A stretch of 64,000 nt of DNA from NCBI GenBank assembly GCA_964016885.1, contig OZ024742.1:376402001-376466000 (forward strand), written 5' to 3'. Under the pieces are notes generated by a model that saw nothing but the letters and a program-made list of their open reading frames with translations, did no database searches and was not told the DNA's origin. Both the position numbers and the translations under genes were made by a program. This DNA comes from Eledone cirrhosa. Lineage: Eukaryota. Numbering within the stretch: the stretch's first letter is position 1; the number at the start of each line of letters is the position of its first letter. Shown here in pieces: positions 12,301 to 44,053 of this stretch.

Positions 12301-13469
12301 ATACAATAGTATAGAGTAATGTAAATGTTATGTGAGATAAAGCCTTTACAGTGAAAATACAATAGTATAGAGTAATGTAAGTGTTATGTGAGATAAAGCC
12401 TTTACAGTGAAAATACAATAGTATAGAGTAATGTAAATGTTATGTGAGATAAAGCCTTTACATTGAAAATACAATAGTATAGAGTAATGTAAATGTTAAG
12501 TGACAGAAAGCATTTACAGTGAAAATACAATAGTATAGAGTAATGTAAATGTTATGTGAGATAAAGCCTTTACGGTGAAAATACCATAGTATAGAGTAAT
12601 GTAAATGTTATGTGAGATAAAGCCTTTACAGTGAAAATACAATAGTATAGAGTAATGTAAATGTTATGTGAGATAAAGCCTTTACAGTGAAAATACAATA
12701 GTATAGAGTAATGTAAATGTTATGTGAGATGAAGCCTTTACAGTGAAAATACAATAGTATAGAGTAGTGTAAATGTTATGTGAGATAAAGCCTTTACAGT
12801 GAAAGTACAATAGTATAGAGTAATGTAAATGTTATGTGAGATAAAGCCTTTACAGTGAAAATACAATAGTATAGAGTAATGTAAATGTTATGTGAGATAA
12901 AGCCTTTACAGTGAAAATACAATAGTATAGAGTAATGTAAATGTTATGTGAGATAAAGCCTTTACAGTGAAAATACAATAGTATAGAGTAATGTAAACGT
13001 TATGTCAGATAAAGCCTTTACAGTGAAAATACAATAGTATAGAGTAATGTAAATGCTATGTGAGATAAAGCCTTTACAGTGAAAATACAATAGTATAGAG
13101 TAATGTAAATGTTATGTGAGATAAAGCCTTTACAGTGAAAATACAATAGTATAGAGTAATGTAAATGCTATGTGAGATAAAGCCTTTACAGTGAAAATAC
13201 AATAGTATTGAGTAATGTAAATGTAATGTGAGATAAAGCCTTTACAGTGAAAATACAATAGTATAGAGTAATGTAAATGTTATGTGAGATAAAGCCTTTA
13301 CAGTGAAAATACAATAGTATAGAGTAATGTAAATGCTATGTGAGGTAAAGCCTTTACAGTGAAAATACAATAGTATAGAGTAATGTAAATGCTATGTGAG
13401 ATAAAGCCTTTACAGTGAAAATACAATAGTATAGAGTAATGTAAATGTTATGTGAGATGAAGCCTTTAC
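3366..13469 (+). repeat. Higher-order repeat in satellite A: alternating 1796-bp (31-mer) and 1516-bp (26-mer) blocks, giving a 3312-bp super-unit
   Basis: The marker monomer with GAGCAATG starts at 3366, 5162, 6678, 8474, 9990, 11786 and 13470 (spacings 1796, 1516, 1796, 1516, 1796, 1684). Each spacing equals n x 56 + 5 x 12. Confidence 0.9.
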
Positions 13470-18500: not shown

Positions 18501-21500
18501 GTATAGAGTAATGTAAATGTTATGTGAGATAAAGCCTTTACAGTGAAAATACAATAGTATAGAGTAATGTAAATGTTATATGTAATATTATGTGAGATAA
18601 AGCACTTACAGTGAAAATACAATAGTATAGAGTAATGTAAATGTTATGTGTAATATTATGTGAGATAAAGCCTTTACAGTGAAAATACAATAGTATAGAG
18701 TAATGTAAATGTCATGTGAGATAAAGCCTTTACAGTGAAAATACAATAGTATAGAGTAATGTAAATGCTATGTGTAATATTATGTGAGATAAAGCCTTTA
18801 CAGTGAAAATACAATAGTATAGAGTAATGTAAATATTATGTGAGATAAAGCCTTTACATTGAAAATACAATAGTATAGAGAAATGTAAATGTTAAGTGAG
18901 AGAAAGCATTTTCAGTGAAAATACAATAGTATAGAGTAATGTAAATGTTATGTGAGATAAAGCCTTTACAGTGAAAATACAACAGTATAGAGTAATGTAA
19001 ATGTTATGTGAGATAAAGCCTTTACAGTGAAAATACAATAGTATAGAGTAATGTAAATGTTATGTGACATAAAGCCTTTACAGTGAAAATACAATAGTAT
19101 AGAGTAATGTAAATGTTATGTGAGATGAAGCCTTTACAGTGAAAATACAATAGTATAGAGTAGTGTAAATGTTATGTGAGATAAAGCCTTTACAGTGAAA
19201 GTACAATAGTATAGAGTAATGTAAATGTTATGTGAGATAAAGCCTTTACAGTGAAAATACAATAGTATAGAGTAATGTAAATGTTGTGAGATAAAGCCTT
19301 TACAGTGAAAATACAATAGTATAGAGTAATGTAAATGTTAAGTGTAATATTATGTGAGATAAAGCCTTTACAGTGAAAATACAATAGTATAGAGTAATGT
19401 AAATGTTATGTGTAATATTTTGTGAGATAAAGCCTTTACAGTGAAAATACAATAGTATAGAGTAATGTAAATGTTATGTGAGATAAAGCCTTTACAGTGA
19501 AAATACAATAGTATAGAGTAATGTAAATGTTATGTGAGATAAAGCCTTTACAGTGAAAATACAATAGTATAGAGTAATGTAAATGCTATGTTAGATAAAG
19601 CCTTTACAGTGAAAATACAATAGTATAGAGTAATGTAAATGTTATGTGAAATAAAGCCTTTACAGTGAAAATACAATAGTATAGAGTAATGTAAATGTTA
19701 TGTGAGATAAAGCCTTTACAGTGAAAATACAATAGTATAGAGTAATGTAAATGTTATGTGAGATAAAGCCTTTACAGTGAAAATCAATAGTATAGAGTAA
19801 TGTAAATGTTATGTGAGATAAAGCTTTTACAGTGAAAATACAATAGTATAGAGTAATGTAAACGTTATGTCAGATAAAGCCTTTATAGTGAAAATACAAT
19901 AGTATAGAGTAATGTAAATGCTATGTGAGATAAAGCATTTGCAGTGAAAATACAATAGTATAGAGTAATGTAAATGCTATGTTAGATAAAGCCTTTACAG
20001 TGAAAATACAATAGTATAGAGTAATGTAAATGTTATGTGAAATAAAGCCTTTACAGTGAAAATACAATAGTATAGAGTAATGTAAATGTTATGTGAGATA
20101 AAGCCTTTACAGTGAAAATACAATAGTATAGAGTAATGTAAATGTTATGTGAGATAAAGCCTTTACAGTGAAAATACAATAGTATAGAGTAATGTAAATG
20201 TTAAGTGAGGTAAAGCCTTTACAGTGAAAATACAATAGTATAGAGTAATGTAAATCTTATGTGAGATAAAGCCTTTACAGTGAAAATACAGTAGTATAGA
20301 GTAATGTAAATGTTATGTGAGATAAAGCCTTTACAGTGAAAATACAGTAGTATAGAGTAATGTAAATGTTATGTGAGATAAAGCCTTTACAGTGAAAATA
20401 CAATAGTATAGAGTAATGTAAATGCTATGTGAGATAAAGCCTTTACAGTGAAAATACAATAGTATAGAGTAATGTAAATGTTATGTGAGATAAAGCCTTT
20501 ACAGTGAAAATACAATAGTATAGAGTAATGTAAATGCTATGTGAGATAAAGCCTTTACAGTGAAAATACAATAGTATAGAGTAATGTAAATGTTATGTGA
20601 GATAAAGCCTTTACGGTGAAAATACCATAGTATAGAGTAATGTAAATGTTATGTGAGATAAATCCTTTACAGTGAAAATACAATAGTATAGAGTAATGTA
20701 AATGTTATGTGAGATAAAGCCTTTACAGTGAAAATACAATAGTATAGAGTAATGTAAATGTTATGTGAGATGAAGCCTTTACAGTGAAAATACAATAGTA
20801 TAGAGTAGTGTAAATGTTATGTGAGATAAAGCCTTTACAGTGAAAGTACAATAGTATAGAGTAATGTAAATGTTATGTGAGATAAAGCCTTTACAGTGAA
20901 AATACAATAGTATAGAGTAATGTAAATGTTATGTGAGATAAAGCCTTTACAGTGAAAATACAATAGTATAGAGTAATGTAAATGTTATGTGAGATAAAGC
21001 CTTTACAATGAAAATACAATAGTATAGAGTAATGTAAACGTTATGTCAGATAAAGCCTTTACAGTGAAAATACAATAGTATAGAGTAATGTAAATGCTAT
21101 GTGAGATAAAGCCTTTACAGTGAAAATACAATAGTATAGAGTAATGTAAATGTTATGTGAGATAAAGCCTTTACAGTGAAAATACAATAGTATAGAGTAA
21201 TGTAAATGTTATGTGAGATAAAGCCTTTACAGTGAAAATACAATAGTATAGAGTAATGTAAATGCTATGTGAGATAAAGCCTTTACAGTGAAAATACAAT
21301 AGTATAGAGTAATGTAAATGTTATGTGAGATAAAGCCTTTACAGTGAAAATACAATAGTATAGAGTAATGTAAATGCTATGTGAGATAAAGCCTTTACAG
21401 TGAAAATACAATAGTATAGAGTAATGTAAATGTTATGTGAGATAAAGCCTTTACAGTGAAAATACAATAGTATAGAGTAATGTAAATGTTATGTGAGATA

Positions 21501-23300
21501 AATCCTTTACAGTGAAAATACAATAGTATAGAGTAATGTAAATGCTATGTGAGGTAAAGCCTTTACAGTGAAAATACAATAGTATAGAGTAATGTAAATG
21601 CTATGTGAGATAAAGCCTTTACAGTGAAAATACAATAGTATAGAGTAATGTAAATGTTATGTGAGATGAAGCCTTTACAGTGAAAATACAATAGTATAGA
21701 GCAATGTAAATGTTATGTGTAATATTATGTGAGATAAAGCCTTTTCAGTGAAAATACAATAGTATAGAGTAATGTAAATGTTATGTGAGATAAAGCCTTT
21801 ACAGTGAAAATACAATAGTATAGAGTAATGTAAATGTTATATGTAATATTATGTGAGATAAAGCACTTACAGTGAAAATACAATAGTATAGAGTAATGTA
21901 AATGTTATGTGTAATATTATGTGAGATAAAGCCTTTACAGTGAAAATACAATAGTATAGAGTAATGTAAATGTCATGTGAGATAAAGCCTTTACAGTGAA
22001 AATACAATAGTATAGAGTAATGTAAATGCTATGTGTAATATTATGTGAGATAAAGCCTTTACAGTGAAAATACAATAGTATAGAGTAATGTAAATATTAT
22101 GTGAGATAAAGCCTTTACATTGAAAATACAATAGTATAGAGAAATGTAAATGTTAAGTGAGAGAAAGCATTTTCAGTGAAAATACAATAGTATAGAGTAA
22201 TGTAAATATTATGTGAGATAAAGCCTTTACAGTGAAAATACAATAGTATAGAGTAATGTAAATGTTATGTGAGATAAAGCCTTTACAGTGAAAATACAAT
22301 AGTATAGAGTAATGTAAATGTTATGTGACATAAAGCCTTTACAGTGAAAATACAATAGTATAGAGTAATCTAAATGTTATGTGAGATGAAGCCTTTACAG
22401 TGAAAATACAATAGTATAGAGTAGTGTAAATGTTATGTGAGATAAAGCCTTTACAGTGAAAGTACAATAGTATAGAGTAATGTAAATGTTATGTGAGATA
22501 AAGCCTTTACAGTGAAAATACAATAGTATAGAGTAATGTAAATGTTGTGAGATAAAGCCTTTACAGTGAAAATACAATAGTATAGAGTAATGTAAATGTT
22601 AAGTGTAATATTATGTGAGATAAAGCCTTTACAATGAAAATACAATAGTATAGAGTAATGTAAATGTTATGTGTAATATTTTGTGAGATAAAGCCTTTAC
22701 AGTGAAAATACAATAGTATAGAGTAATGTAAATGTTATGTGAGATAAAGCCTTTACAGTGAAAATACAATAGTATAGAGTAATGTAAATGTTATGTGAGA
22801 TAAAGCCTTTACAGTGAAAATACAATAGTATAGAGTAATGTAAATGCTATGTTAGATAAAGCCTTTACAGTGAAAATACAATAGTATAGAGTAATGTAAA
22901 TGTTATGTGAAATAAAGCCTTTACAGTGAAAATACAATAGTATAGAGTAATGTAAATGTTATGTGAGATAAAGCCTTTACAGTGAAAATACAATAGTATA
23001 GAGTAATGTAAATGTTATGTGAGATAAAGCCTTTACAGTGAAAATACAATAGTATAGAGTAATGTAAATGTTAAGTGAGGTAAAGCCTTTACAGTGAAAA
23101 TACAATAGTATAGAGTAATGTAAATCTTATGTGAGATAAAGCCTTTACAGTGAAAATACAGTAGTATAGAGTAATGTAAATGTTATGTGAGATAAAGCCT
23201 TTACAGTGAAAATACAGTAGTATAGAGTAATGTAAATGTTATGTGAGATAAAGCCTTTACAGTGAAAATACAATAGTATAGAGTAATGTAAATGTTATGT
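15546..23300 (+). repeat. Second higher-order repeat domain in satellite A (2872-bp and 3261-bp periods)
   Basis: GAGCAATG marker monomers at 15546, 18418 and 21679. Private variants (GAGAAATG, GTGACATAAAG, AATATTTTGTG, AAATCTTATG) recur in the same order. The ORF track shows the same 3261 offset (19134 vs 22395). Confidence 0.85.
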
Positions 23301-26300
23301 GAGATAAAGCCTTTACAGTGATAATACAATAGTATAGAGTAATGTAAATGCTATGTGAGATAAAGCCTTTACAGTGAAAATACAATAGTATAGAGTAATG
23401 TATATGTTATGTGAGATAAAGCCTTTACAGTGAAAATACAATAGTATAGAGTAATGTAAATGTTATGTGAGATAAAGCCTTTACAGTTAAAATACAATAG
23501 TATAGAGTAAAGTAAATGCTACGTGAGATAAAGCCTTTACAGTGAAAATACAATAGTATAGAGTAATGTAAATGCTATGTGAGATAAAGCCTTTACAGTG
23601 AAAATACAATAGTATAGAGTAATGTAAATGTTATGTGAGATAAAGCCTTTACAGTGAAAATCAATAGTATAGAGTAATGTAAATGTTATGTGAGATAAAG
23701 CCTTTACAGTGAAAATACAATAGTATAGAGTAATGTAAACGTTATGTCAGATAAAGCCTTTATAGTGAAAATACAATAGTATAGAGTAATGTAAATGCTA
23801 TGTGAGATAAAGCATTTGCAGTGAAAATACAATAGTATAGAGTAATGTAAATGTTATGTGAGATAAAGCCTTTGCAGTGAAAATACGATAGTATAGAATA
23901 ATGTAAATGTTATGTGAGATAAAGCCTTTACAGTGAAAATACAATAGTATAGAGTAATGTAAATGCTATGTGAGATAAAGCCTTTACAGTAAAAATACAA
24001 TAGTATAGATTAATGTAAATGTTATGTGAGATAAAGCCTTTACAGTGAAAATACAATAGTATAGAGTAATGTAAATGATATGTGAGATAAAGCCTTTACA
24101 GTGAAAATACAATAGTATAGAGTAATGTAAATGCTATGTGAGATAAAGCCTTTACAGTGAAAATACAATAGTATAGAGTAATGTAAATGTTATGTGAGAT
24201 AAAGCCTTTACAGTGAAAATACAATAGTATAGAGTAATGTAAACGTTATGTCAGATAAAGCCTTTACAGTGAAAATACAATAGTATAAAGTAATGTAAAT
24301 GCTATGTGAGATAAAGCCTTTACAGTGAAAATACAATAGTATAGAGTAATGTAAATGTTATGTGAGATAAAGCCTTTACAGTGAAAATACAATAGTATTG
24401 AGTAATGTAAACGTTATGTCAGATAAAGCCTTTACAGTGAAAATACAATAGTATAGAGTAATGTAAATGCTATGTGAGCTAAAGCCTTTACAGTGAAAAT
24501 ACAATAGTATAGAGTAATGTAAATGTTATGTGAGATAAAGCCTTTACAGTGAAAATACAATAGTATAGAGTAATGTAAATGTTATGTGAGATAAAGCCTT
24601 TACAGTGAAAATACAATAGTATAGAGTAATGTAAATGCTATGTGAGATAAAGCCTTTACAGTGAAAATACAATAGTATAGAGTAATGTAAATGTTATGTG
24701 AGATAAAGCCTTTACAGTGAAAATACAATAGTATAGAGTAATGTAAATGTTATGTGAGATAAAGCCTTTACAGTGAAAATACAATAGTATCGAGTAATGT
24801 AAATGTTATGTGAGATAAAGCCTTTACAGTGAAAATACAATAGTATAGAGTAATGTAAATGCTATGTGAGATAAAGCCTTTACAGTGAAAATACAATAGT
24901 ATAGAGTAATGTAAATGTTATGTGAGATAAAGCGTTTACAGTGAAAATACAATAGTATTGAGTAATGTAAATGTTATGTGAGATAAAGCCTTTACAGTGA
25001 AAATACAATAGTCTAGAGTAATGTAAATGTTATGTGAGATAAAGCGTTTACAGTGAAAATACAATAGTATAGAGTAATGTAAATGTTATGTGAGATAAAG
25101 CCTTTACAGTGAAAATACAATAGTATAGAGTAATGTAAATGTTATGTGAGATAAAGCCTTTACAGTGAAAATAAAATAGTATAGAGTAATGTAAATGTTA
25201 TGTGAGATAAAGTCTTTACAGTGAAAATACAATAGTATAGAGTAATGTAAATGCTATGTGAGATAAAGCCTTTACAGTGAAAATACAATAGTATAGAGTA
25301 ATGTAAATGTTATGTGAGATAAAGCCTTTACAGTGAAAATACAATAGTATAGAGTAATGTAAATGCTATGTGAGATAAAGCCTTTACAGTGAAAATACAA
25401 TAGTATAGAGTAATGTAAATGTTATGTGAGATAAAGCCTTTACAGTGAAAATAGAATAGTATAGAGTAATGTAAATGTTATGTGAGATAAAGCCTTTACA
25501 GTGAAAATACAATAGTATAGAGTAATGTAAATGCTATGTGAGATAAAGCCTTTACAGTTAAAATACAATAGTATAGAGTAATGTAAATGCTATGTGAGAT
25601 AAAGCCTTTACAGTAAAAATACAATAGTATAGAGTAATGTAAATGTTATGTGAGATAAAGCCTTTACAGTGAAAATACAATAGTATAGAGTAATGTAAAT
25701 GTTATGTGAGATAAAGCCTTTACAGTGAAAATACAATAGTATAGAGTAATGTAAACGTTATGTCAGATAAAGCTTTTACAGTGAAAATACAATAGTATAG
25801 AGTAATGTAAATGCTATGTGAGATAAAGCCTTTACAGTGAAAATACAATAGTATAGAGTAATGTAAATGTTATGTGAGATAAAGCCTTTACAGTGAAAAT
25901 ACAATAGTATAGAGTAATGTAAATGCTATGTGAGATAAAGCCTTTACAGTGAAAATACAATAGTATAGAGTAATATAAATGTTATGTGAGATAAAGCCTT
26001 TACAGTGAAAATACAATAGTATAGAGTAATGTAAACGTTATGTCAGATAAAGCCTTTACAGTGAAAATACAATTGTATAGAGTAATGTAAATGCTATGTG
26101 AGATAAAGCCTTTACAGTGAAAATACAATAGTATAGAGTAATGTAAATGTTATGTGAGATAAAGCCTTTAGAGTGAAAATACAATAGTATAGAGTAATGT
26201 AAATGCTATGTGAGATAAAGCCTTTACAGTGAAAATACAATAGTATAGAGTAATGTAAATGCTATGTGAGATAAAGCCTTTACAGTGAAAATACAATAGT

Positions 26301-29279
26301 ATAGAGTAATGTAAATGCTATGTGAGATAAAGCCTTTACAGTGAAAATACAATAGTATAGAGTAATGTAAATGCTATGTGAGATAAAGCCTTTACAGTGA
26401 AAATACAATAGTATAGAGTAATGTAAATGTTATGTGAGATAAAGCCTTTACAGTGAAAATAGAATAGTATAGAGTAATGTAAATGTTATGTGAGATAAAG
26501 CCTTTACAGTGAAAATACAATAGTATAGAGTAATGTAAATGCTATGTGAGATAAAGCCTTTACAGTTAAAATACAATAGTATAGAGTAATGTAAATGCTA
26601 TGTGAGATAAAGCCTTTACAGTAAAAATACAATAGTATAGAGTAATGTAAATGTTATGTGAGATAAAGCCTTTACAGTGAAAATACAATAGTATAGAGTA
26701 ATGTAAATGTTATGTGAGATAAAGCCTTTACAGTGAAAATACAATAGTATAGAGTAATGTAAACGTTATGTCAGATAAAGCTTTTACAGTGAAAATACAA
26801 TAGTATAGAGTAATGTAAATGCTATGTGAGATAAAGCCTTTACAGTGAAAATACAATAGTATAGAGTAATGTAAATGTTATGTGAGATAAAGCCTTTACA
26901 GTGAAAATACAATAGTATAGAGTAATGTAAATGCTATGTGAGATAAAGCCTTTACAGTGAAAATACAATAGTATAGAGTAATATAAATGTTATGTGAGAT
27001 AAAGCCTTTACAGTGAAAATACAATAGTATAGAGTAATGTAAACGTTATGTCAGATAAAGCCTTTACAGTGAAAATACAATTGTATAGAGTAATGTAAAT
27101 GCTATGTGAGATAAAGCCTTTACAGTGAAAATACAATAGTATAGAGTAATGTAAATGTTATGTGAGATAAAGCCTTTAGAGTGAAAATACAATAGTATAG
27201 AGTAATGTAAATGCTATGTGAGATAAAGCCTTTACAGTGAAAATACAATAGTATAGAGTAATGTAAATGCTATGTGAGATAAAGTCTTTACAGTGAAAAT
27301 ACAATAGTATAGAGTAATGTAAATGCTATGTGAGATAAAGCCTTTACAGTGAAAATACAATAGTATAGAGTAATGTAAATGTTATGTGAGATAAAGCCTT
27401 TACAGTGAAAATACAATAGTATAGAGTAATGTAAATGTTATGTGAGATAAAGCCTTTACAGTGAAAATACAATAGTCTAGAGTAATGTAAATGCTATGTG
27501 AGATAAAGCGTTTACAGTGAAAATACAATAGTATAGAGTAATGTAAATGTTATGTGAGATAAAGCCTTTACAGTGAAAATACAATAGTATAGAGTAATGT
27601 AAATGTTATGTGAGATAAAGCCTTTACAGTGAAAATAAAATAGTATAGAGTAATGTAAATGTTTTGTGAGATAAAGCCTTTACAGTGAAAATACAATAGT
27701 ATAGAGTAATGTAAATGCTATGTGAGATAAAGCCTTTACAGTGAAAATACAATAGTATAGAGTAATGTAAATGTTATGTGAGAATAAGCCTTTACAGTGA
27801 AAATACAATAGTATAGAGTAATGTAAATGCTATGTGAGATAAAGCCTTTACAGTGAAAATACAATAGTATAGAGTAATGTAAATGTTATGTGAGATAAAG
27901 CCTTTACAGTGAAAATACAATAGTATAGAGTAATGTAAATGTTATGTGAGATAAAGCCTTTACAGTGAAAATACAATAGTATAGAGTAATGTAAATGCTA
28001 TGTGAGATAAAGCCTTTACAGTGAAAATACATTAGTATAGAGTAATGTAAATGCTATCTGAGATAAAGCCTTTACAGTGAAAATACAATAGTATAGAGTA
28101 ATGTAAATTTTATGTGAGATGAAGCCTTTACAGTGAAAATACAATAGTATAGAGTAATGTAAATGTTATGTGAGATAAAGCCTTTACAGTGAAAATACAC
28201 TAGTATAGAGTAATGTAAACGTTATGTCAGATAAAGCCTTTACAGTGAAAATACAATAGTATAGAGTAATGTAAATGTTATGTGAGATAAAGCCTTTACA
28301 GTGAAAATACAATAGTATAGAGTAATGTAAATGTTATGTGAGATAAAGCCTTTACAGTGAAAATACAATAGTATAGAGTAATGTAAATGTTATGTGAGAT
28401 AAAGCTTTTACAGTGAAAATACAATAGTATAGAGTAATGTAAATGCTATGTGAGATAAAGCCTTTACAGTGAAAATACAATAGTATAGAGTAATGTACAT
28501 GTTATGTGAGATAAAGCCTTTACAGTGAAAATACAATAGTATAGGGTAATGTAAATGTTATGTGAGATAAAGCTTTTACAGTGAAAATACAATACTATAG
28601 AGTAATGTAAATGCTATGTGAGATAAAGCCTTTACAGTGAAAATACAATAGTATAGAGTAATGTAAATGTTATGTGAGATAAAGCCTTTACAGTGAAAAT
28701 ACAATAGTATTGAGTAATGTAAATGTTATGTGAGATAAAGCCTTTACAGTGAAAATACAATAGTATAGAGTAATGTAAATGTTATGTGAGATAAAGCCTT
28801 TACAGTGAAAATACAATAGTATAGAGTAATGTAAATGTTATGTGAGATAAAGCCTTTACAGTGAAAATACAATAGTATAGAGTAATGTAAATGTTATGTG
28901 AGATAAAGCCTTTACAGTGAAAATACAATAGTATAGAGTAATGTAAATGTTATGTGAGATAAAGCCTTTACAGTGAAAATACAATAGTATAGAGTAATGT
29001 AAATGTTATGTGAGATAAAGCCTTTACAGTGAAAATACAATAGTATAGAGTAATGTAAATGCTATGTGAGATAAAGCCTTTACAGTGAAAATACAATAGT
29101 ATAGAGTAATGTAAATGTTATGTGAGATAAAGCCTTTACAGTGAAAATACAATAGTATAGAGTAATGTAAATGTTATGTGAGATAAAGCCTTTACAGTGA
29201 AAATACAATAGTATAGAGTAATGTAAATGCTATGTGAGATAAAGCCTTTACAGTGAAAATACAATAGTATAGAGTAATG

Positions 29280-32200
29280 TAAATGTTATGTGAGATAAAA
29301 CCTTTACAGTGAAAATACAATAGTATAGAGTAATGTAAATGTCATGTGAGATAAAGCCTTTACAGTGAAAATACAATAGTATAGAGTAATGTAAATGCTA
29401 TGTGAGATAAAGCCTTTACAGTGAAAATACAATAGTATAGAGTAATGTAAATGCTATCTGAGATAAAGCCTTTACAGTGAAAATACAATAGTATAGAGTA
29501 ATGTAAATGTTATGTGAGATGAAGCCTTTACAGTGAAAATACAATAGTATAGAGTAATGTAAATGTTATGTGAGATAAAGCCTTTACAGTGAAAATACGA
29601 TAGTATAGAGTAATGTAAACGTTATGTCAGATAAAGCCTTTACAGTGAAAATACAATAGTATAGAGTAATGTAAATGCTATGTGAGATAAAGCCTTTACA
29701 GTGAAAATACAATAGTATAGAGTAATGTAAATGTTATGTGAGATAAAGCCTTTACAGTGAAAATACAATAGTATAGAGTAATGTAAATGTTATGTGAGAT
29801 AAAGCCTTTACAGTGAAAATACAATGGTATAGAGTAATGTAAATGTTATGTGAGATAAAGCCTTGACAGTGAAAATGCAATAGTATAGAGTAATGTAAAT
29901 GTTATGTGAGATAAAGCCATTACAGTGAAAATACAATAGTATAGAATAATGTAAATGCTATGTGAGATAAAGCCTTTACAGTGAAAATACAATAGTATAG
30001 AGTAATGTAAATGTTATGTGAGATAAAGCCTTTACAGTGAAAATACAATAGTATAGAGTAATGTAAATGTTATGTGAGATAAAGCCTTTACAGTGAAAAT
30101 ACAATAGTCTAGAGTAATGTAAATGTTATGTGAGATAAAGCCTTTAAGGTGAAAATACAATAGTATAGAGTAATGTAAATGCTATGTGAGATAAAGCCTT
30201 TACAGTGAAAATACAATAGTATAGAGTAATGTAAATGTTATGTGAGATAAAACCTTTTCAGTGAAAATACAATAGTATAGAGTAATGTAAATGCTATGTG
30301 AGATAAAGCCTTTACAGTGAAAATAAAATAGTATAGAGTAATGTAAATGTTACGTGAGATAAAGCCTTTACAGTGAAAATACAATAGTATAGAGTAATGT
30401 AAATGTTATGTGAGATAAAGCCTTTACAGTGAAAATACAATAGTATAGAGTAATGTAAATGTTATGTGAGATAAAGCCTTTACAGTGAAAATACAATAGT
30501 ATAGAGTAATGTAAATGTTATGTGTAATATTATGTGAGATAAAGCCTTTTCAGTGAAAATACAACAGTATAGAGTAATGTAAATGTTATGTGAGATAAAA
30601 CCTTTACAGTGAAAATACAATAGTATAGAGTAATGTATATGTTGTGTAATATTATGTGAGATAAAGCCTTTACAGTGAAAATACAATAGTATAGATTAAT
30701 GTAAATGTCATGTGAGATAAAGCCTTTACAGTGAAAATACAATAATATAGAGTAATGTAAATGCTATGTGTAATATTATGTGAGATAAAGCCTTTACAGT
30801 GAAAATACAATAGTATAGAGTAATGTAAATGCTATGTGTAATATTATGTGAGATAAAGCCTTTACAGTGAAAATACAATCGTATAGAATAATGTAAATGT
30901 TATGTGAGATAAAGCCTTTACAGTGAAAATACAATAGTATAGAGTAATGTAAATGTTATGTCAGATAAAGCCTTTACAGTGAAAATACAATAGTATAGAG
31001 TAATGTAAATGTTATGTGAGATAAAGCCTTTACAGTGAAAATACAATAGTATAGAGTAATGTAAATGTTATGTGTAATATTATGTGAGATAAAGCCTTTT
31101 CAGTGAAAATACAATAGTATAGAGTAATGTAAATGTTATGTGTAATATTATGTGAGATAAAGCCTTTACAGTGAAAATACAATAGTATAGAGTAATGTAA
31201 ATGTTATATGTAATATTATGTGAGATAAAGCCTTTACAGTGAAAATACAATAGTATAGAGTAATGTAAATGTTATGTGTAATATTATGTGAGATAAAGCC
31301 TTTACAGTGAAAATACAATAGTATAGAGTAATTTAAACGTTATGTCAGATAAAGCCTTTACAGTGAAAATACAATAGTATAGAGTAATGTAAATGTTATG
31401 TGAGATAAAGCCTTTACAGTGAAAATACAATAGTATAGAGTAATGTAAATGTTATGTGAGATAAAGCCTTTACAGTGAAAATACAGTAGTATAGAGTAAT
31501 GTAAATGTTATGTGAGATAAAGCCTTTACAGTGAAAATACAGTAGTATAGAGTAATGTAAATGTTATGTGAGATAAAGCCTTTACAGTGAAAATACAATA
31601 GTATAGAGTAATGTAAATGCTATGTGAGATAAAGCCTTTACAGTGAAAATACAATAGTATAGAGTAATGTAAATGTTATGTGAGATAAAGCCTTTACAGT
31701 GAAAATACAATAGTATAGAGTAATGTAAATGTTTTGTGAGATAAAGCCTTTACAGTGAAAATACAATAGTATAGAGTAATGTAAATGCTACGTGAGATAA
31801 AGCCTTTACAGTGAAAGTACAATAGTATAGAGTAATGTAAATGTTATGTGAGATAAAGCCTTTGCAGTGAAAATACAATAGTATAGAGTAATGTAAATGT
31901 TACGTGAGATAAAGCCTTTACCGTGAAAATAGAATAGTATAGAGTAACGTAAATGTTATGTGAGATAAAGCCTTTACAGTGAAAATACAATAGTATAGAG
32001 TAATGTAAATGTTATGCGAGATAAAGCCTTTACAGTGAAAATACAGTAGTATAGAGTAATGTAAATGTAATGTGAGATAAAGCCTTTACAGTGAAAATAC
32101 AATAGTATAGAGTAATGTAAATGCTATGTTAGATAAAGCCTTTACAGTGAAAATACAATAGTATAGAGTAATGTAAATGTTATGTGAGATAAAGCCTTTA

Positions 32201-35200
32201 CAGTGAAAATACAATAGTATAGAGTAATGTAAATGTTATGTGAGATAAAGCCTTTACAGTGAAAATACAATAGTATAGAGTAATGTAAATGTTATGTGAG
32301 GTAAAGCCTTTACAGTGAAAATACAATAGTATAGAGTAATGTAAATGTTATGTGAGATAAAGCCTTTACAGTGAAAATACAGTAGTATAGAGTAATGTAT
32401 ATGTTATGTGAGATAAAGCCTTTACAGTGAAAATACAGTAGTATAGAGTAATGTAAATGTTATGTGAGATAAAGCCTTTACAGTGAAAATACAATAGTAT
32501 AGAGTAATGTAAATGTTACGTGAGATAAAGCCTTTACCGTGAAAATAGAATAGTATAGAGTAATGTAAATGTTATGTGAGATAAAGCCTTTACAGTGAAA
32601 ATACAATAGTATAGAGTAATGTAAATGTTATGCGAGATAAAGCCTTTACAGTGAAAATACAGTAGTATAGAGTAATGTAAATGTAATGTGAGATAAAGCC
32701 TTTACAGTGAAAATACAATAGTATAGAGTAATGTAAATGCTATGTTAGATAAAGCCTTTACAGTGAAAATACAATAGTATAGAGTAATGTAAATGTTATG
32801 TTAGATAAAGCCTTTACAGTGAAAATACAATAGTATAGAGTAATGTAAATGTTATGTGAGATAAAGCCTTTACAGTGAAAATACAATAGTATAGAGTAAT
32901 GTAAATGTTATGTGAGGTAAAGCCTTTACAGTGAAAATACAATAGTATAGAGTAATGTAAATGTTATGTGAGATAAAGCCTTTACAGTGAAAATACAGTA
33001 GTATAGAGTAATGTAAATGTTATGTGAGATAAAGCCTTTACAGTGAAAATACAGTAGTATAGAGTAATGTAAATGTTATGTGAGATAAAGCCTTTACAGT
33101 GAAAATACAATAGTATAGAGTAATGTAAATGCTATGTGAGATAAAGCCTTTACAGTGAAAATACAATAGTATAGAGTAATGTAAATGTTATGTGAGATAA
33201 AGCCTTTACAGTGAAAATACAATAGTATAGAGTAATGTAAATGTTATGTGAGATAAAGCCTTTACAGTGAAAATACAATAGTATAGAGTAATGTAAATGT
33301 TATGTGAGATAAAGCCTTTACAGTGAAAATACAATAGTATAGAGTAATGTAAATGTTATGCGAGATAAAGCCTTTACAGTGAAAATACAGTAGTATAGAG
33401 TAATGTAAATGTAATGTGAGATAAAGCCTTTACAGTGAAAATACAATAGTATAGAGTAATGTAAATGTAATGTGAGATAAAGCCTTTACAGTGAAAATAC
33501 AGTAGTATAGAGTAATGTAAATGTTATGTGAGATAAAGCTTTTACAGTGAAAATACAATAGTATAGAGTAATGTAAATGTTATGTGAGATAAAGCCTTTA
33601 CAGTGAAAATACAGTAGTATAGAGTAATGTAAATGTTATGTGAGATAAAGCCTTTACAGTGAAAATACAGTAGTATAGAGTAATGTAAATGTTATGTGAG
33701 ATAAAGCCTTTACAGTGAAAATACAGTAGTATAGAGTAATGTAAATGTTATGTGAGATAAAGCCTTTACAGTGAAAATACAATAGTATAGAATAATGTAA
33801 ATGCTATGTGAGATAAAGCCTTTACAGTGAAAATACAATAGTATAGAGTAATGTAAATGTTATGTGAGATAAAGCCTTTACAGTGAAAATACAATAGTAT
33901 AGAGTAATGTAAATGCTATCTGAGATAAAGCCTTTACAGTGAAAATACAATAGTATAGAGTAATGTAAATGTTATGTGAGATGAAGCCTTTACAGTGAAA
34001 ATACAATAGTATAGAGTAATGTAAATGTTATGTGAGATAAAGCCTTTACAGTGAAAATACAATAGTATAGAGTAATGTAAACGTTATGTCAGATAAAGCC
34101 TTTACAGTGAAAATACAATAGTATAGAGTAATGTAAATGCCATGTGAGATAAAGCCTTTACAGTGAAAATACAATAGTATAGAGTAATGTAAATGTTATG
34201 TGAGATAAAGCCTTTACAGTGAAAATACAATAGTATAGAGTAATGTAAATGTTATGTGAGATAAAGCCTTTACAGTGAAAATACAATAGTATAGAGTAAT
34301 GTAAATGTTATGTGAGATAAAGCCTTTACAGTGAAAATACAATAGTATAGAGTTATGTAAATGCTATGTGAGATAAAGCCTTTACAGTGAAAATACAATA
34401 GTATAGAGTAATGTAAATGTTATGTGAGATAAAACCTTTACAGTGAAAATACAATAGTATAGAGTAATGTAAATGTCATGTGAGATAAAGCCTTTACAGT
34501 GAAAATACAATAGTATAGAGTAATGTAAATGCTATGTGAGATAAAGCCTTTACAGTGAAAATACAATAGTATAGAGTAATGTAAATGCTATCTGAGATAA
34601 AGCCTTTACAGTGAAAATACAATAGTATAGAGTAATGTAAATGTTATGTGAGATGAAGCCTTTACAGTGAAAATACAATAGTATAGAGTAATGTAAATGT
34701 TATGTGAGATAAAGCCTTTACAGTGAAAATACGATAGTATAGAGTAATGTAAACGTTATGTCAGATAAAGCCTTTACAGTGAAAATACAATAGTATAGAG
34801 TAATGTAAATGCTATGTGAGATAAAGCCTTTACAGTGAAAATACAATAGTATAGAGTAATGTAAATGTTATGTGAGATAAAGCCTTTACAGTGAAAATAC
34901 AATAGTATAGAGTAATGTAAATGTTATGTGAGATAAAGCCTTTACAGTGAAAATACAATAGTATAGAGTAATGTAAATGTTATGTGAGATAAAGCCTTGA
35001 CAGTGAAAATACAATAGTATAGAGTAATGTAAATGTTATGTGAGATAAAGCCTTTACAGTGAAAATACAATAGTATAGAATAATGTAAATGCTATGTGAG
35101 ATAAAGCCTTTACAGTGAAAATACAATAGTATAGAGTAATGTAAATGTTATGTGAGATAAAGCCTTTACAGTGAAAATACAATAGTATAGAGTAATGTAA

Positions 35201-38200
35201 ATGTTATGTGAGATAAAGCCTTTACAGTGAAAATACAATAGTCTAGAGTAATGTAAATGTTATGTGAGATAAAGCATTTACAGTGAAAATACAATAGTAT
35301 AGAGTAATGTAAATGTTATGTGAGATAAAGCCTTTACAGTGAAAATACAATAGTATAGAGTAAGGTAAATGTTATGTGAGATAAAGCCTTTACAGTGAAA
35401 ATACAATAGTATAGAGTAATGTAAATGTTATGTGAGATAAAGCCTTTACAGTGAAAATACAATAGTATAGAGTAATGTAAATGCTATGTGAGATAAAGCC
35501 TTTACAGTGAAAATACAATAGTATAGAGTAATGTAAATGTTATGTGAGATAAAACCTTTTCAGTGAAAATACAATAGTATAGAGTAATGTAAATGCTATG
35601 TGAGATAAAGCCTTTACAGTGAAAATAAAATAGTATAGAGTAATGTAAATGTTATGTGAGATAAAGCCTTTACAGTGAAAATACAATAGTATAGAGTAAT
35701 GTAAATGTTATGTGAGATAAAGCCTTTACAGTGAAAATACAATAGTATAGAGTAATGTAAATGTTATGTGAGATAAAGCCTTTACAGTGAAAATACAATA
35801 GTATAGAGTAATGTAAATGTTATGTGTAATATTATGTGAGATAAAGCCTTTTCAGTGAAAATACAATAGTATAGAGTAATGTAAATGTTATGTGAGATAA
35901 AACCTTTACAGTGAAAATACAATAGTATAGAGTAATGTATATGTTGTGTAATATTATGTGAGATAAAGCCTTTACAGTGAAAATACAATAGTATAGATTA
36001 ATGTAAATGTCATGTGAGATAAAGCCTTTACAGTGAAAATACAATAATATAGAGTAATGTAAATGCTATGTGTAATATTATGTGAGATAAAGCCTTTACA
36101 GTGAAAATAGAATAGTATAGAGTAATGTAAATGCTATGTGTAATATTATGTGAGATAAAGCCTTTACAGTGAAAATACAATCGTATAGAATAATGTAAAT
36201 GTTATGTGAGATAAAGCCTTTACAGTGAAAATACAATAGTATAGAGTAATGTAAATGCTATGTGAGATAAAGCCTTTACAGTGAAAATACAATAGTATAG
36301 AGTAATGTAAATGTTATGTGAGATAAAGCCTTTACAGTGAAAATACAATAGTATAGAGTAATGTAAGTGTTATGTGAGATAAAGCCTTTACAGTGAAAAT
36401 ACAATAGTATAGAGTAATGTAAATGTTATGTGAGATAAAGCCTTTACAGTGAAAATACAATAGTATAGGGTAATGTAAATGTTAAGTGAGATAAAGCCTT
36501 CACAGTGAAAATACAATAGTATAGAGTAATGTAAATGTTATGTGAGATAAAGCCTTTACAGTGAAAATACAATAGTATAGAGTAATGTAAATGTTATGTG
36601 AGATAAAGCCTTTACAGTGAAAATACAATAGTATAGAGTAATGTAAATGTTATGTGAGATAAAGCCTTTACAGTGAAAATACAATAGTATAGAGTAATGT
36701 AAATGTTATGTGTAATATTATGTGAGATAAAGCCTTTTCAGTGAAAATACAATAGTATAGAGTAATGTAAATGTTATGTGTAATATTATGTGAGATAAAG
36801 CCTTTATAGTGAAAATACAATAGTATAGAGTAATGTAAATGTTATATGTAATATTATGTGAGATAAAGCCTTTACAGTGAAAATACAATAGTATAGAGTA
36901 ATGTAAATGTTATGTGTAATATTATGTGAGATAAAGCCTTTACAGTGAAAATACAATAGTATAGAGTAATTTAAACGTTATGTCAGATAAAGCCTTTACA
37001 GTGAAAATACAATAGTATAGAGTAATGTAAATGTTATGTGAGATAAAGCCTTTACAGTGAAAATACAATAGTATAGAGTAATGTAAATGTTATGTGAGAT
37101 AAAGCCTTTACAGTGAAAATACAATAGTATAGAGTAATGTAAATGTTATGTGAGATAAAGCCTTTACAGTGAAAATACAATAGTATAGAGTAATGTAAAT
37201 GTTATGTGAGATAAAGCCTTGACAGTGAAAATACAATAGTATAGAGTAATGTAAATGTTATGTGAGATAAAGCCTTTACAGTGAAAATACAATAGTATAG
37301 AATAATGTAAATGCTATGTGAGATAAAGCCTTTACAGTGAAAATACAATAGTATAGAGTAATGTAAATGTTATGTGAGATAAAGCCTTTACAGTGAAAAT
37401 ACAATAGTATAGAGTAATGTAAATGTTATGTGAGATAAAGCCTTTACAGTGAAAATACAATAGTCTAGAGTAATGTAAATGTTATGTGAGATAAAGCATT
37501 TACAGTGAAAATACAAAAGTATAGAGTAATGTAAATGTTATGTGAGATAAAGCCTTTACAGTGAAAATACAATAGTATAGAGTAAGGTAAATGTTATGTG
37601 AGATAAAGCCTTTACAGTGAAAATACAATAGTATAGAGTAATGTAAATGTTATGTGAGATAAAGCCTTTACAGTGAAAATACAATAGTATAGAGTAATGT
37701 AAATGCTATGTGAGATAAAGCCTTTACAGTGAAAATACAATAGTATAGAGTAATGTAAATGTTATGTGAGATAAAACCTTTTCAGTGAAAATACAATAGT
37801 ATAGAGTAATGTAAATGCTATGTGAGATAAAGCCTTTACAGTGAAAATAAAATAGTATAGAGTAATGTAAATGTTACGTGAGATAAAGCCTTTACAGTGA
37901 AAATACAATAGTATAGAGTAATGTAAATGTTATGTGAGATAAAGCCTTTACAGTGAAAATACAATAGTATAGAGTAATGTAAATGTTATGTGAGATAAAG
38001 CCTTTACAGTGAAAATACAATAGTATAGAGTAATGTAAATGTTATGTGTAATATTATGTGAGATAAAGCCTTTTCAGTGAAAATACAATAGTATAGAGTA
38101 ATGTAAATGTTATGTGAGATAAAACCTTTACAGTGAAAATACAATAGTATAGAGTAATGTATATGTTGTGTAATATTATGTGAGATAAAGCCTTTACAGT

Positions 38201-41200
38201 GAAAATACAATAGTATAGATTAATGTAAATGTCATGTGAGATAAAGCCTTTACAGTGAAAATACAATAATATAGAGTAATGTAAATGCTATGTGTAATAT
38301 TATGTGAGATAAAGCCTTTACAGTGAAAATACAATAGTATAGAGTAATGTAAATGCAATGTGTAATATTATGTGAGATAAAGCCTTTACAGTGAAAATAC
38401 AATCGTATAGAATAATGTAAATGTTATGTGAGATAAAGCCTTTACAGTGAAAATACAATAGTATAGAGTAATGTAAATGCTATGTGAGATAAAGCCTTTA
38501 CAGTGAAAATACAATAGTATAGAGTAATGTAAATGTTATGTGAGATAAAGCCTTTACAGTGAAAATACAATAGTATAGAGTAATGTAAGTGTTATGTGAG
38601 ATAAAGCCTTTACAGTGAAAATACAATAGTATAGAGTAATGTAAATGTTATGTGAGATAAAGCCTTTACAGTGAAAATACAATAGTATAGGGTAATGTAA
38701 ATGTTAAGTGAGATAAAGCCTTCACAGTGAAAATACAATAGTATAGAGTATGGTAAATGTTATGTGAGATAAAGCCTTTACAGTGAAAATACAATAGTAT
38801 CGAGTAATGTAAATGTTATGTGAGATAAAGCCTTTACAGTGAAAATACAATAGTATAGAGTAATGTAAATGTTATGTGAGATAAAGCCTTTACAGTGAAA
38901 ATACAATAGTATAGAGTAATGTAAATGTTATGTCAGATAAAGCCTTTACAGTGAAAATACAATAGTATAGAGTAATGTAAATGTTATGTGAGATAAAGCC
39001 TTTACAGTGAAAATACAATAGTATAGAGTAATGTAAATGTTATGTGTAATATTATGTGAGATAAAGCCTTTTCAGTGAAAATACAATAGTATAGAGTAAT
39101 GTAAATGTTATGTGTAATATTATGTGAGATAAAGCCTTTACAGTGAAAATACAATAGTATAGAGTAATGTAAATGTTATATGTAATATTATGTGAGATAA
39201 AGCCTTTACAGTGAAAATACAATAGTATAGAGTAATGTAAATGTTATGTGTAATATTATGTGGGATAAAGCCTTTACAGTGAAAATACAATAGTATAGAG
39301 TAATTTAAACGTTATGTCAGATAAAGCCTTTACAGTGAAAATACAATAGTATAGAGTAATGTAAATGTTATGTGAGATAAAGCCTTTACAGTGAAAATAC
39401 AATAGTATAGAGTAATGTAAATGTTATGTGAGATAAAGCCTTTACAGTGAAAATACAGTAGTATAGAGTAATGTAAATGTTATGTGAGATAAAGCCTTTA
39501 CAGTGAAAATACAGTAGTATAGAGTAATGTAAATGTTATGTGAGATAAAGCCTTTACAGTGAAAATACAATAGTATAGAGTAATGTAAATGCTATGTGAG
39601 ATAAAGCCTTTACAGTGAAAATACAATAGTATAGAGTAATGTAAATGTTATGTGAGATAAAGCCTTTACAGTGAAAATACAATAGTATAGAGTAATGTAA
39701 ATGTTATGTGAGATAAAGCCTTTACAGTGAAAATACAATAGTATAGAGTAATGTAAATGCTACGTGAGATAAAGCCTTTACAGTGAAAGTACAATAGTAT
39801 AGAGTAATGTAAATGTTATGTGAGATAAAGCCTTTGCAGTGAAAATACAATAGTATAGAGTAATGTTAATGTTACGTGAGATAAAGCCTTTACCGTGAAA
39901 ATAGAATAGTATAGAGTAATGTAAATGTTATGTGAGATAAAGCCTTTACAGTGAAAATACAATAGTATAGAGTAATGTAAATGTTATGCGAGATAAAGCC
40001 TTTACAGTGAAAATACAGTAGTATAGAGTAATGTAAATGTAATGTGAGATAAAGCCTTTACAGTGAAAATACAATAGTATAGAGTAATGTCAATGCTATG
40101 TTAGATAAAGCCTTTACAGTGAAAATACAATAGTATAGAGTAATGTAAATGTTATGTGAGATAAAGCCTTTACAGTGAAAATACAATAGTATAGAGTAAT
40201 GTAAATGTTATGTGAGATAAAGCCTTTACAGTGAAAATACAATAGTATAGAGTAATGTAAATGTTATGTGAGGTAAAGCCTTTACAGTGAAAATACAATA
40301 GTATAGAGTAATGTAAATGTTATGTGAGATAAAGCCTTTACAGTGAAAATACAGTAGTATAGAGTAATGTATATGTTATGTGAGATAAAGCCTTTACAGT
40401 GAAAATACAGTAGTATAGAGTAATGTAAATGTTATGTGAGATAAAGCCTTTACAGTGAAAATACAATAGTATAGAGTAATGTAAATGTTACGTGAGATAA
40501 AGCCTTTACCGTGAAAATAGAATAGTATAGAGTAATGTAAATGTTATGTGAGATAAAGCCTTTACAGTGAAAATACAATAGTATAGAGTAATGTAAATGT
40601 TATGCGAGATAAAGCCTTTACAGTGAAAATACAGTAGTATAGAGTAATGTAAATGTAATGTGAGATAAAGCCTTTACAGTGAAAATACAATAGTATAGAG
40701 TAATGTAAATGCTATGTTAGATAAAGCCTTTACAGTGAAAATACAATAGTATAGAGTAATGTAAATGTTATGTGAGATAAAGCCTTTACAGTGAAAATAC
40801 AATAGTATAGAGTAATGTAAATGTTATGTGAGATAAAGCCTTTACAGTGAAAATACAATAGTATAGAGTAATGTAAATGTTATGTGAGGTAAAGCCTTTA
40901 CAGTGAAAATACAATAGTATAGAGTAATGTAAATGTTATGTGAGATAAAGCCTTTACAGTGAAAATACAGTAGTATAGAGTAATGTAAATGTTATGTGAG
41001 ATAAAGCCTTTACAGTGAAAATACAGTAGTATAGAGTAATGTAAATGTTATGTGAGATAAAGCCTTTACAGTGAAAATACAATAGTATAGAGTAATGTAA
41101 ATGTTATGTGAGATAAAGCCTTTACAGTGAAAATACAATAGTATAGAGTAATGTAAATGTTATGCGAGATAAAGCCTTTACAGTGAAAATACAGTAGTAT

Positions 41201-41330
41201 AGAGTAATGTAAATGTAATGTGAGATAAAGCCTTTACAGTGAAAATACAATAGTATAGAGTAATGTAAATGTAATGTGAGATAAAGCCTTTACAGTGAAA
41301 ATACAGTAGTATAGAGTAATGTAAATGTTA
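29280..41330 (+). repeat. Third higher-order domain in satellite A: multi-kb block duplications with a nested 616-bp (11-mer) duplication
   Basis: The same variant block occurs at 30480, 35782 and 38004. The marker TACCGTGAAAATAG is at about 31922/32538 and again at about 39894/40510 (616 bp apart in both). Confidence 0.8.
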
Positions 41331-42150
41331 TGTGAGATAAAGCCTTTACAGTGAAAATACAATAGTATAGAGTAATGTAAATGTTATGTGAGATAAAGCC
41401 ATTACAGTGAAAATACAGTAGTATAGAGTAATGTAAATGTTATGTGAGATAAAGCCTTTACAGTGAAAATACAGTAGTATAGAGTAATGTAAATGTTATG
41501 TGCGATAAAGCCTTTACAGTGAAAATACAATAGTATAGAGTAATGTAAATGTTATGTGAAATAAAGCCTTTACACTGAAAATACAGTAGTATAGAGTAAT
41601 GTAAATGTTATGTGAGATAAAGCCTTTACAGTGAAAATACAGTAGTATAGAGTAATGTAAATGTTATGTGAGATAAAGCCTTTACAGTGAAAATACAGTA
41701 GTATAGAGTAATGTAAATGTTATGTGAGATAAAGCCTTTACAGTGAAAATACAATAGTATAGAGTAATGTAAATGTTATGTGAGATAAAGCCTTTACAGT
41801 GAAAATACAATAGTATAGAGTAATGTAAATGTTATGTGAGATAAAGCCTTTACAGTGAAAATACAATAGTATAGAGTAATGTAAATGTTATGTGAGATAA
41901 AGCCTTTACAGTGAAAATACAATAGTATAGAGTAATGTAAATGTTATGTGAGATAAAGCCTTTACAGTGAAAATACAATAGTATAGAGTAATGTAAATGT
42001 TATGTGAGATAAAGCCTTTACAGTGAAAATACAATAGTATAGAGTAATGTAAATGTTATGTGAGATAAAGCCTTTACAGTGAAAATACAATAGTATAGAG
42101 TAATGTAAATGCTATGTGAGATAAAGCCTTTACAGTGAAAATACAATAGT

Positions 42151-42179
42151 ATAGAGTAATGTAAATGCTAAAGGGTTAA
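42151..42179 (+). mobile_element. Right terminus of a piggyBac-like MITE (…AGAGTAATGTAAATGCTAAAGGG) plus TTAA target site, capping satellite A
   Basis: The last monomer runs into AAGGG (to 42175) then TTAA (42176-42179). The reverse complement TTAA-CCCTTTAGCATTT matches the termini at 43494-43510, 43856-43872 and 44037-44053. CCC...GGG ends with TTAA duplications are characteristic of the piggyBac superfamily. Confidence 0.8.
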
Positions 42180-42946
42180 TGAGACTTTATTTTATCAACT
42201 CCAGAAGGATGAAAGGCAATTCTTGGCAAGATTTGAACTTAGAACCTAAAGAGCTGGAAGAAATAGCACAAAATATGTTATCTAATGCTCTACTGATTCT
42301 GCCAACCCATCTCTAATACTGGTTTCTCATTTAGACACAAGGGCAACAACTTTTGGGGTAGAAGAAAGTTGATTAAATCGACCCCAGTGCATTACTGTAT
42401 TTGATTTCATCGGCCCCATAAGGATGAAAGGCAAAACTAACCTCGGCAGGATTTGAACTCAGAATATAAAGGGACGTAACTATATACTGCAAAGCATGTT
42501 GTCTGACGCTCTACTGATTACTGATAACCCACTCAAGGTGGAAATAATGATTTTTGATTTAGACATAACGGCAACAATTTTCGGTGAGGGGAAAGTCGAT
42601 TAAATTGAGCCCAGTGCATTACTGGTACTTTATTTTATTGACCCTGTAAAGATGAAAGGTGGGATTTGAACTCAGAATATAAAGGACCATAACTCTCTGC
42701 TGCAAAACATATTGTCCGACGCTCTACTGATTACTGCTAATCTACTGTCCTGACCCACCTCAAATAATGATTTCTATTTTAAGTACAAGACCAGTAAATT
42801 GGTATGAGGGGAAAGTTGATTAAATTGACCCTAGTATATTACTGGTACTTTATTTTATCAACTCTGAACAGTTGAAAGACAAATTTGACCTCGACAGGAT
42901 TCAAACTCAGAATGTAAAGAGTCAAAAGAATTACCTCAATACATTT

Positions 42947-43397: not shown

Positions 43398-43497
43398 ACA
43401 ACAATACTATGTAACAATAGGTATATAGTTAAAGTCACCAACATCCCTCAGATTGCTGGGTTTTATAAGAATACTACAGAACAATATATATACTTAA
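43398..43497 (+). repeat. About 1.5 degenerate copies of a short (about 65-bp) form of the satellite B monomer
   Basis: ACAACAATACTATGTAACAATAGGTATATAGTTAAAGTCACCAACATCCCTCAGATTGCTGGGTTTTATAAGAATACTACAGAACAATATATATACTTAA aligns to satellite B but lacks AGCAGTCTCTGTAAC in both passes. Confidence 0.85.
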
Positions 43498-43620
43498 CCC
43501 TTTAGAATTTAAACTGGATGTATCCAGCCAGAATTCTTTCACCTCTTTCTGTTCAAACCTGTTATGGCTGGTTTGAACAGAAAGTAGTGAGAGAATTCTA
43601 TCTGGATACGGCTGGTTTAA
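43494..43620. mobile_element. Fold-back MITE (type A): TTAA-CCCTTTAG terminus followed by a 51-bp-arm palindrome; right end cut at an internal TTAA
   Basis: Arms 43509-43559 and 43570-43620 are reverse complements at 42 of 51 positions, with loop TGTTATGGCT. A second, complete right arm ending AAATGCTAAAGAG-TTAA lies at 43797-43872. Confidence 0.75.
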
Positions 43621-44053
43621 CCCTTGCAAGCAGGGAAAAGCAGACATAAAATGATGATGATGATTACTCTCTATATACTATCGTATTTTTGTGGCAAAGG
43701 CTTTACCTCACATAATTATCACACATAATATCGAATCTATGAGATTTTGATATTATTTATTTTGAGAACAATACTTTAACATCAGTGTGAGTAGCTGGTT
43801 ATGGCCGGTTCGAACTGAAAGAGGTTAAAGAACTCTGGCCGGATACGGCCGGTTCAAATGCTAAAGAGTTAAGTATATATATATATTGTTCTATAGTATT
43901 CTTATAAAACCCAGACTTTAAGGTATTGTTCTCAAAATAAATAATAACAAAATTTCATACATTCAATATTATGTGAGATGATTATGTATGGTAAAGACTT
44001 TACCATAAAAATATAATAGTAAATATAGAGTAATGTAAATGATAAAGGTTTAA
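43617..44053. mobile_element. piggyBac-like MITE (type B) with long (about 120-135 bp) inverted arms that contain the satellite A monomer
   Basis: Begins TTAA-CCCTT (43617-43625) and ends AAATGATAAAGGT-TTAA (TTAA at 44050-44053). Arm 43663-43779 is the approximate reverse complement of 43918-44034. Confidence 0.75.
43619..43664 (+). mobile_element. Very short RTE-type 3' tail fragment inside the left terminus of MITE B
   Basis: AACCCTTGCAAGCAGGGAAAAGCAGACATAAAATGATGATGATGAT resembles the RTE end AACCCATGCTAGCGTGGAAGAACGGACGTAAAACGGTGATGATGAT. Confidence 0.7.

Follow-up and report, generated by a model that had tools for sequence, protein, structure and literature searches.

How does a long satellite array come to stop exactly at the terminus of a transposon? 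The locus that raises this question lies in a 64,000-bp stretch of the 3.0-Gb Eledone genome (G000:C3:376402001-376466000, ‘the window’), the first 42,167 bp of which are a 56-bp tandem array (Table 1). At the right edge of the array, the last unit passes into AAGGG-TTAA (42160-42179) without any degenerate zone. AAAGG occurs only once in the entire array, at this right terminus, which means that the sequence at the array end did not arise by chance variation within a unit. The first-pass annotation had taken this boundary for an exact transposon terminus, which is borne out, but it put the array at 42 kb. Tracking the array leftward through twelve contiguous 10-kb stretches, back to L037, places its start ~63 kb outside the window and its whole length, as assembled, at ~105.4 kb. 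It contains 1,822 unit anchors, the units being 56 or 68 bp long (spacings of 56 bp account for 1,527 of the 1,821, those of 68 bp for 276), all in one orientation, with no N bases and no foreign inserts. At the left edge, TTAA is followed by a complete left arm of a miniature inverted-repeat element (MITE), and then by the array. The annotation had predicted an inner arm before the first unit and TTAA-CCCTTT further left. Both are present, but the two arms are not mirror images beyond the perfect 14-bp terminal inverted repeats, which start CCCTT and after which the left end reads AACC. With its ends, the element occupies 105,612 bp as assembled (G000:C3:376338564-376444175). We hold with high confidence that the array lies between the ends, and within the TTAA duplication, of one non-autonomous piggyBac-type MITE, and that it likely grew there by tandem expansion.

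Table 1. Positions of the array, the enclosing element and related sequences (window coordinates unless a contig or locus is named).
Feature	Position	Strand	Remarks
Left TTAA of element	C3:376338560-376338563		63.4 kb left of window
Left inverted end and ~150-bp left arm	L037:6560-6710		63.4 kb left of window
Array, in-window part, 56/68-bp units	1..42167	+	Defined by anchors and spacings
Last unit, being the MITE right end, with the array-private 4-bp deletion	42112..42175	+	
Right terminal inverted repeat, 14 bp	42162..42175	+	Perfectly reverse-complementary to the L037 left end
TTAA, right copy of target-site duplication	42176..42179	.	
Right half of older dispersed repeat interrupted by the MITE	42180..42295	+	Left half adjoins L037:6560
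Rearranged MITE sequence	43494..43872	.	Left-end-like termini face to face, at 43494 and 43857-43872; reversed partial copy between
MITE fragment with the inner arm, a single unit and a somewhat decayed right end plus TTAA	43918..44053	+	

The element belongs to a large dispersed family, as had been anticipated from its terminus. When the genome was searched with window positions 43910-44060, copies outside the window were 89-92% identical to the query among the 40 scored of 2,493 candidates, and the dispersed copies inspected mostly have TTAA-CCCTTT on the left, GGG-TTAA on the right and unrelated flanks. A 28-mer comprising the right end and TTAA has at least 8,243 exact matches in the genome, against none for a reversed control pattern. 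Copies with a single unit are 197-229 bp long including both TTAAs (13 measured of 22 single-unit copies). Short length, inverted ends and high copy number make this a MITE family, though the giant copy is itself no longer short. The terminus was also said to recur in the island next to the array. It does so at three sites (43494, 43857 and 44038), but none is exact, each having 1-2 mismatches in 16 bases. The first two of these sites fall in an inverted duplication (43400-43915), in which MITE left ends face each other between mirrored flanks resembling an 80-bp satellite, while the TTAA of the fragment ending at 44053 sits within a unit of that satellite.

The superfamily can be assigned from a partner transposon. 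A search of the genome with the PF13843 profile gave 125 matches, of which 30 loci were taken for comparison of their ends, and 19 of these piggyBac loci have both MITE-matching ends in the same left/right order. The autonomous element is ~2.57 kb long and has a 558-aa transposase frame with DDE_Tnp_1_7 (PF13843) and zf-Tnp_2 (PF13842) domains. The best solved relative of this protein is the piggyBat transposase (E 2.7e-57), T. ni-type structures (9c0f, 6x67) also being matched, and three of its aspartates align with piggyBat aspartates, which we take to be the catalytic triad. Over the first 18 bases, the autonomous ends agree with those of the MITE at 17 positions on the right and at as many as 18 on the left. 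Past its first 20 bp, the MITE left arm still aligns to the autonomous left end with a score of 61, against 25 ± 4 and none as high for 300 shuffles. Beyond the first 18-20 bases, the MITE diverges from the autonomous family, from which its subterminal repeats have drifted, and on these comparisons the true mobiliser may be a related family rather than this one. CCCTT is given as the commonest piggyBac end motif, with short inverted ends beginning CCC, in the accessible text of PMC10813416. The TTAA duplication, the CCCTT inverted ends and the sharing of both ends with a transposase-encoding element thus place the MITE in piggyBac, as the annotation had supposed. A Kolobok identity was considered and rejected: T2-MITEs also have a TTAA target, but their termini are purine-rich (AGGRR, according to the accessible part of PMC6004289), whereas the present ends start with CCC. 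The piggyBac family (L053:973-3547, with relatives in L052-L080) is young, its copies being 93-98% identical, with several open frames of ~560 aa. The right end in L052 lies in an inverted rearrangement. The genome also contains a second family found in the piggyBac search, with ends CCCTTTCGTTACC.

The flanks indicate a single insertion. The right flank is part of an older dispersed repeat, and in 14 of 42 copies of this repeat the sequence upstream fits the left flank of the element better than all 200 shuffles. The best of these alignments (z 11.1) has no gaps and places TTAA over TTAC. The 28 copies that did not beat all shuffles are mostly a shorter variant without the matching stretch, and the median score of the real flank exceeds those of all 43 unrelated MITE flanks used as controls. 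The test was also made in reverse, with the left flank as query: all four copies examined, from 23 non-self matches to the left flank, run into the right flank with an offset of 0-1, and none of 300 shuffles scored as high. The target is the same four bases in either flank, as is characteristic of a TTAA duplication, and only one TTAA has been duplicated. These anchored alignments were used instead of a plain BLAST test for the empty site, which placed the left flank in one locus only. The flank itself is single-copy in the assembly, and a search with it found neither an empty-site haplotype nor a second copy there. Since the flanks fit, the enclosure of the array is hard to explain as an artefact, though the length of the array may be mis-assembled. 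The proposal that the whole array lies in one hugely inflated element, with a MITE arm and TTAA on its left, a terminus and TTAA on its right and flanks that rejoin, is therefore upheld.

The same evidence bears on the alternative that the array arose between two MITE copies, by recombination or loop excision (the Hikosaka-Kawahara route), or that two loci were joined by the assembler. MITE copies are dense here, with three further termini within 2 kb, and among the Logan contigs listed, which were swamped by paralogous repeats, none bridged either junction under a 31-base rule. Nevertheless, this origin is very improbable, because the outer flanks are adjacent halves of one copy of the older repeat with only TTAA duplicated, and because the array, which is free of N, shows local higher-order blocks, with lags that include 31, 57 and 82 units, as well as 235 different 56-mers. 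One Logan contig, from run X12, joins the left flank to 19 bases of the element with no differences, but it probably comes from the source sample and so is not independent. In relatives, a search of Logan contigs for the left flank at 97% found no coverage. The flanks would also be compatible with two insertions in tandem at one TTAA and a subsequent deletion, a history that differs from a single insertion only in the origin of the first duplication.

The composition of the unit points to the element's own ends as its source. It aligns to both the left end (0/300 shuffles) and the right end (1/300 shuffles) of the autonomous transposon, which makes it likely that the unit spans a deletion join, the match to the right end depending mainly on the terminal 18 bases. 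The annotation had derived the unit simply from one MITE arm, but it appears to extend across a junction of left-end and right-end sequence. Each internal unit has the inner part of the right inverted end and lacks the terminal AAGGG. Single-unit copies contain an internal 12-bp direct repeat, not present in the autonomous element, and a jump from the inner right end to one or the other copy of this repeat gives 60 or 72 bp; both periods are found in the other arrays of the family. The borders of the unit share 5 of 7 bases, and both of the possible crossover forms are present in the arrays. In the giant array, every unit has a private 4-bp deletion, which gives the 56- and 68-bp lengths, and none of the 1,821 spacings is 60 or 72 bp. 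All 1,092 genome matches to a 34-mer diagnostic of the 56-bp form lie inside the giant element, whose first and last units alike show this deletion and are exactly in phase with the arms.

These properties weigh against a free-standing 56-bp satellite having recombined into, or been captured by, a resident MITE, with no growth from this copy. Homology of the unit to all MITE copies would make such recombination possible, and some 60-bp arrays (4 of 20) have no MITE ends. There are also parallels in the accessible text of PMC12628747, namely the capture of a pre-existing repeat proposed for miDNA4 and, in oyster, recombination of arrays inside elements with standalone ones. However, the assembly offers no 56-bp donor outside the element, the private deletion is in register at both extremes of the array, and the unit, since it aligns to the ends of the autonomous transposon itself, has no external source; such an origin accordingly has only a slim probability.

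Internal arrays are a recurring trait of this MITE family. The junction motif has 5,273 exact matches in the genome, 930 of them in the giant element, and other copies have 2, 3, 5, 9, 12, 28, 36, 55, 74, 118 and ~156 units. Twenty arrays of at least five units, picked by array content, were checked for MITE ends: both were found in 11 by a script threshold and in 13 after inspection, which left three arrays with one end and four with neither. As 38 of 2,847 candidates were scored, larger 60-bp arrays may exist, and the 4,343 remaining junction matches set a loose bound only on them. Two loci, L154 and L160, have common flanks (93%) but 37 and 26 units, respectively, so arrays change in length where they stand. 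Copies with several units belong to two subfamilies and do not group together on a weakly resolved tree of 74 arms, which has 20 label changes against 22.6 when shuffled (72 of 500 shuffles being as low), at least six of them forced by starred branches. An alternative order of events, in which a multi-unit ancestor underwent repeated contraction, may apply, as this tree, most of it lacking resolution, accommodates gain and loss alike. Arrays in L113 (C1:9.59 Mb) and on C2 have a common inserted sequence upstream, and those in L115 (C1:30.45 Mb) and on C2 have a right flank in common, although in each case the contigs differ; three arrays, of 151, 102 and 72 units, lie at C2:20.58-20.61 Mb (L141-143, L201). 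Duplication, or carriage within another element, may be a further way in which arrays spread.

The giant copy, with 1,822 head-to-tail units and higher-order blocks, is by its structure a satellite array. Divergence of its units from the column majority is 2.0% and uniform over the length of the array, whereas the left arm of the element differs by 7-34% from 50 dispersed copies (median 12.5%; best 93% identical). The diversity within the array is therefore younger than the insertion, which could reflect either late growth or homogenisation. Position on the chromosome may be relevant. Over the first 31 Mb of C1, there are 21 exact termini and 11 places with an exact junction; over the next 28.5 Mb, there are 79 exact termini and no exact junction. 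Among the first 30 termini, eight belong to copies with more than one unit; this proportion overstates the genome-wide rate because all eight are among the first 21. The giant array is on C3, at a distance of 2.5 Mb from the contig end, amid arrays of 44, 80, 24, 68, 48 and 18 bp. One chromosome arm and one locus thus support the inference that the chromosome region affects array size.

A sequence of events can be proposed in which the array grew in place from the MITE, as we infer it did. The 2.57-kb piggyBac element has the two ends of the MITE in order, and the MITE would be an internal-deletion derivative of a related element, retaining ~190 bp of the left end and ~20 bp of the right. One copy inserted at a TTAA inside the older repeat near the C3 end. 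The segment from the 12-bp repeat to the inner right inverted end would then have been duplicated through the short homology at the unit borders, with a start at one or the other copy of the 12-bp repeat producing the 60- or 72-bp unit seen throughout the family. The 4-bp deletion reduced these to the 56 and 68 bp that are private to the giant's units. Further growth might have been by unequal exchange or by replication-based duplication of blocks, helped by a location near a chromosome end where other satellites abound. The giant array need not have any function, and is most likely a neutral by-product.

Alternatively, the expanded element could have grown elsewhere and then transposed to this site, or could still be mobile as a block. 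Its two ends have been preserved and correspond to those of a family in which transposase frames are open and copies are 97-98% identical, and piggyBac can move, and precisely excise, 100-kb cargo in mouse cells (accessible text of PMC3239208). We regard this history as extremely unlikely, since the 56-bp form has a single locus with no second flank copy or empty site in the assembly, the arm is older than the internal diversity of the array, and the MITE's subterminal repeats have drifted from those of the autonomous family. Growth in place remains the preferred reading. The clean excision of 100 kb by piggyBac, set beside the requirement of T. ni piggyBac for subterminal binding sites (accessible part of PMC7351741), leaves a small chance that the 105-kb block is still a substrate; it is unlikely, but conceivable, that the open-frame transposase of this genome could move it or excise it without a footprint. 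If so, satellite blocks would appear and vanish as single units, and the ~1,800 internal partial ends could soak up transposase.

Satellites derived from MITEs are established, Xstir/Xmix, miDNA4 and Tetris among them (PMC9659126, PMC12628747; here and below, comparisons refer to the accessible portions of the sources). The closest parallel in mechanism is Xmix/Xstir of Xenopus, where an internal segment of a TTAA MITE has been amplified in tandem and single, composite and array forms coexist (PMC6004289, PMC12628747). However, Xmix is a T2-MITE with AGGRR ends, assigned to Kolobok (PMC6004289), whereas the Eledone element has CCCTT ends and a piggyBac partner, and its array of ~1,822 units has kept both ends and the target duplication. 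The mechanism is thus like that of Xmix/Xstir and fits the Scalvenzi-Pollet model, without membership of the Xmix type. In that model, as in miDNA4 of Xenopus tropicalis, unit number varies within the MITE, short direct repeats lie at unit borders and growth into classical satellite arrays is expected (PMC12628747, PMC9659126). The same sources describe miDNA4 as a Tc1/mariner element whose repeat is proposed to have been captured, while the Eledone unit comes from the element's own ends; they also expect long arrays to lose their ends, which in Eledone survive at 105 kb.

Short tandem arrays in dispersed non-autonomous elements are also found in DTC84 of Donax trunculus (PMC3879986) and in the Helitrons of Crassostrea gigas (PMC8268682), both from superfamilies different from that of the Eledone element. 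DTC84 has at most five units, and in the oyster the longest element-associated array has 89 units, those of more than 100 being mostly standalone. The Ogre satellites of Lathyrus sativus resemble the present case in that most arrays are short and within the element while a few expand regionally, FabTR-51 reaching 174 kb. They originate from LTR retrotransposons and have expanded in primary constrictions, and the accessible text describes no single giant array with both ends and a target duplication (PMC7004042). Tetris/TIR-220 of Drosophila virilis, as far as its accessible description goes, is likewise a satellite from the terminal-repeat sequence of a DNA transposon. Tetris is a foldback element with long modular inverted repeats. 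In contrast, the Eledone inverted end is 14 bp long and each unit has only its inner part. What sets the present case apart is the piggyBac origin, the formation of the unit from the element's own ends, and an array of satellite size that retains both ends and the target duplication. A piggyBac-derived satellite was not found in the accessible text of two reviews (PMC9659126, PMC12628747), where the word is absent, or in the literature searched, which included few subscription papers; nothing on this repeat was found in the cephalopod literature searched.

That MITEs can give rise to satellites is a model already in the literature, where the case for it generally rests on sequence similarity, on short internal arrays or on long arrays that no longer have their ends. 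The giant array would catch a transposon in the course of turning into satellite DNA, in a genome that also holds stages from 1 to ~156 units and the likely parent transposon family. Because the founder's ends, the target duplication and the interrupted target have been kept, the starting sequence and the single origin are known, and rates of unit mutation, block duplication and homogenisation thereby become measurable across individuals and relatives. The locus also points to a division of roles, the seed being supplied by a transposon and the size of the array being set by the chromosome region.

An 86-base contig (56 + 30) from run X2, labelled as another organism, matches window positions 42082-42167 with no differences, 86 bases being the length expected of a cyclic 56-bp repeat at a word size of 31. 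The 56-bp unit may perhaps be common to a relative, or the label or run type may differ. Around the array, C3 from ~375.4 to 376.6 Mb (L038-L050, L123-L129) is a patchwork of unrelated satellites with short unique islands between them: the 44-bp satellite covers at least 54 kb, the 80-bp satellite ~55 kb and the 24-bp satellite ~95 kb of samples, while 68-, 48- and 18-bp satellites were met in sparse samples. By eye, and at one end each, the neighbouring 80-, 44- and 24-bp satellites have no such MITE terminus. Within the window, a dispersed-repeat insert of ~680-740 bp lies in the 80-bp satellite three times (44050-44787, 45638-46388 and 48536-49286), and positions 44986-48613 are duplicated at 47882-51510 with 96.6% identity, so this satellite has amplified the insert along with itself. 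On the other side, 1.1 kb to the left of the element, a 61-bp tandem repeat (L037:4865-5417) has nine copies at 99% identity within sequence that, on visual inspection, resembles a LINE fragment in reverse orientation.
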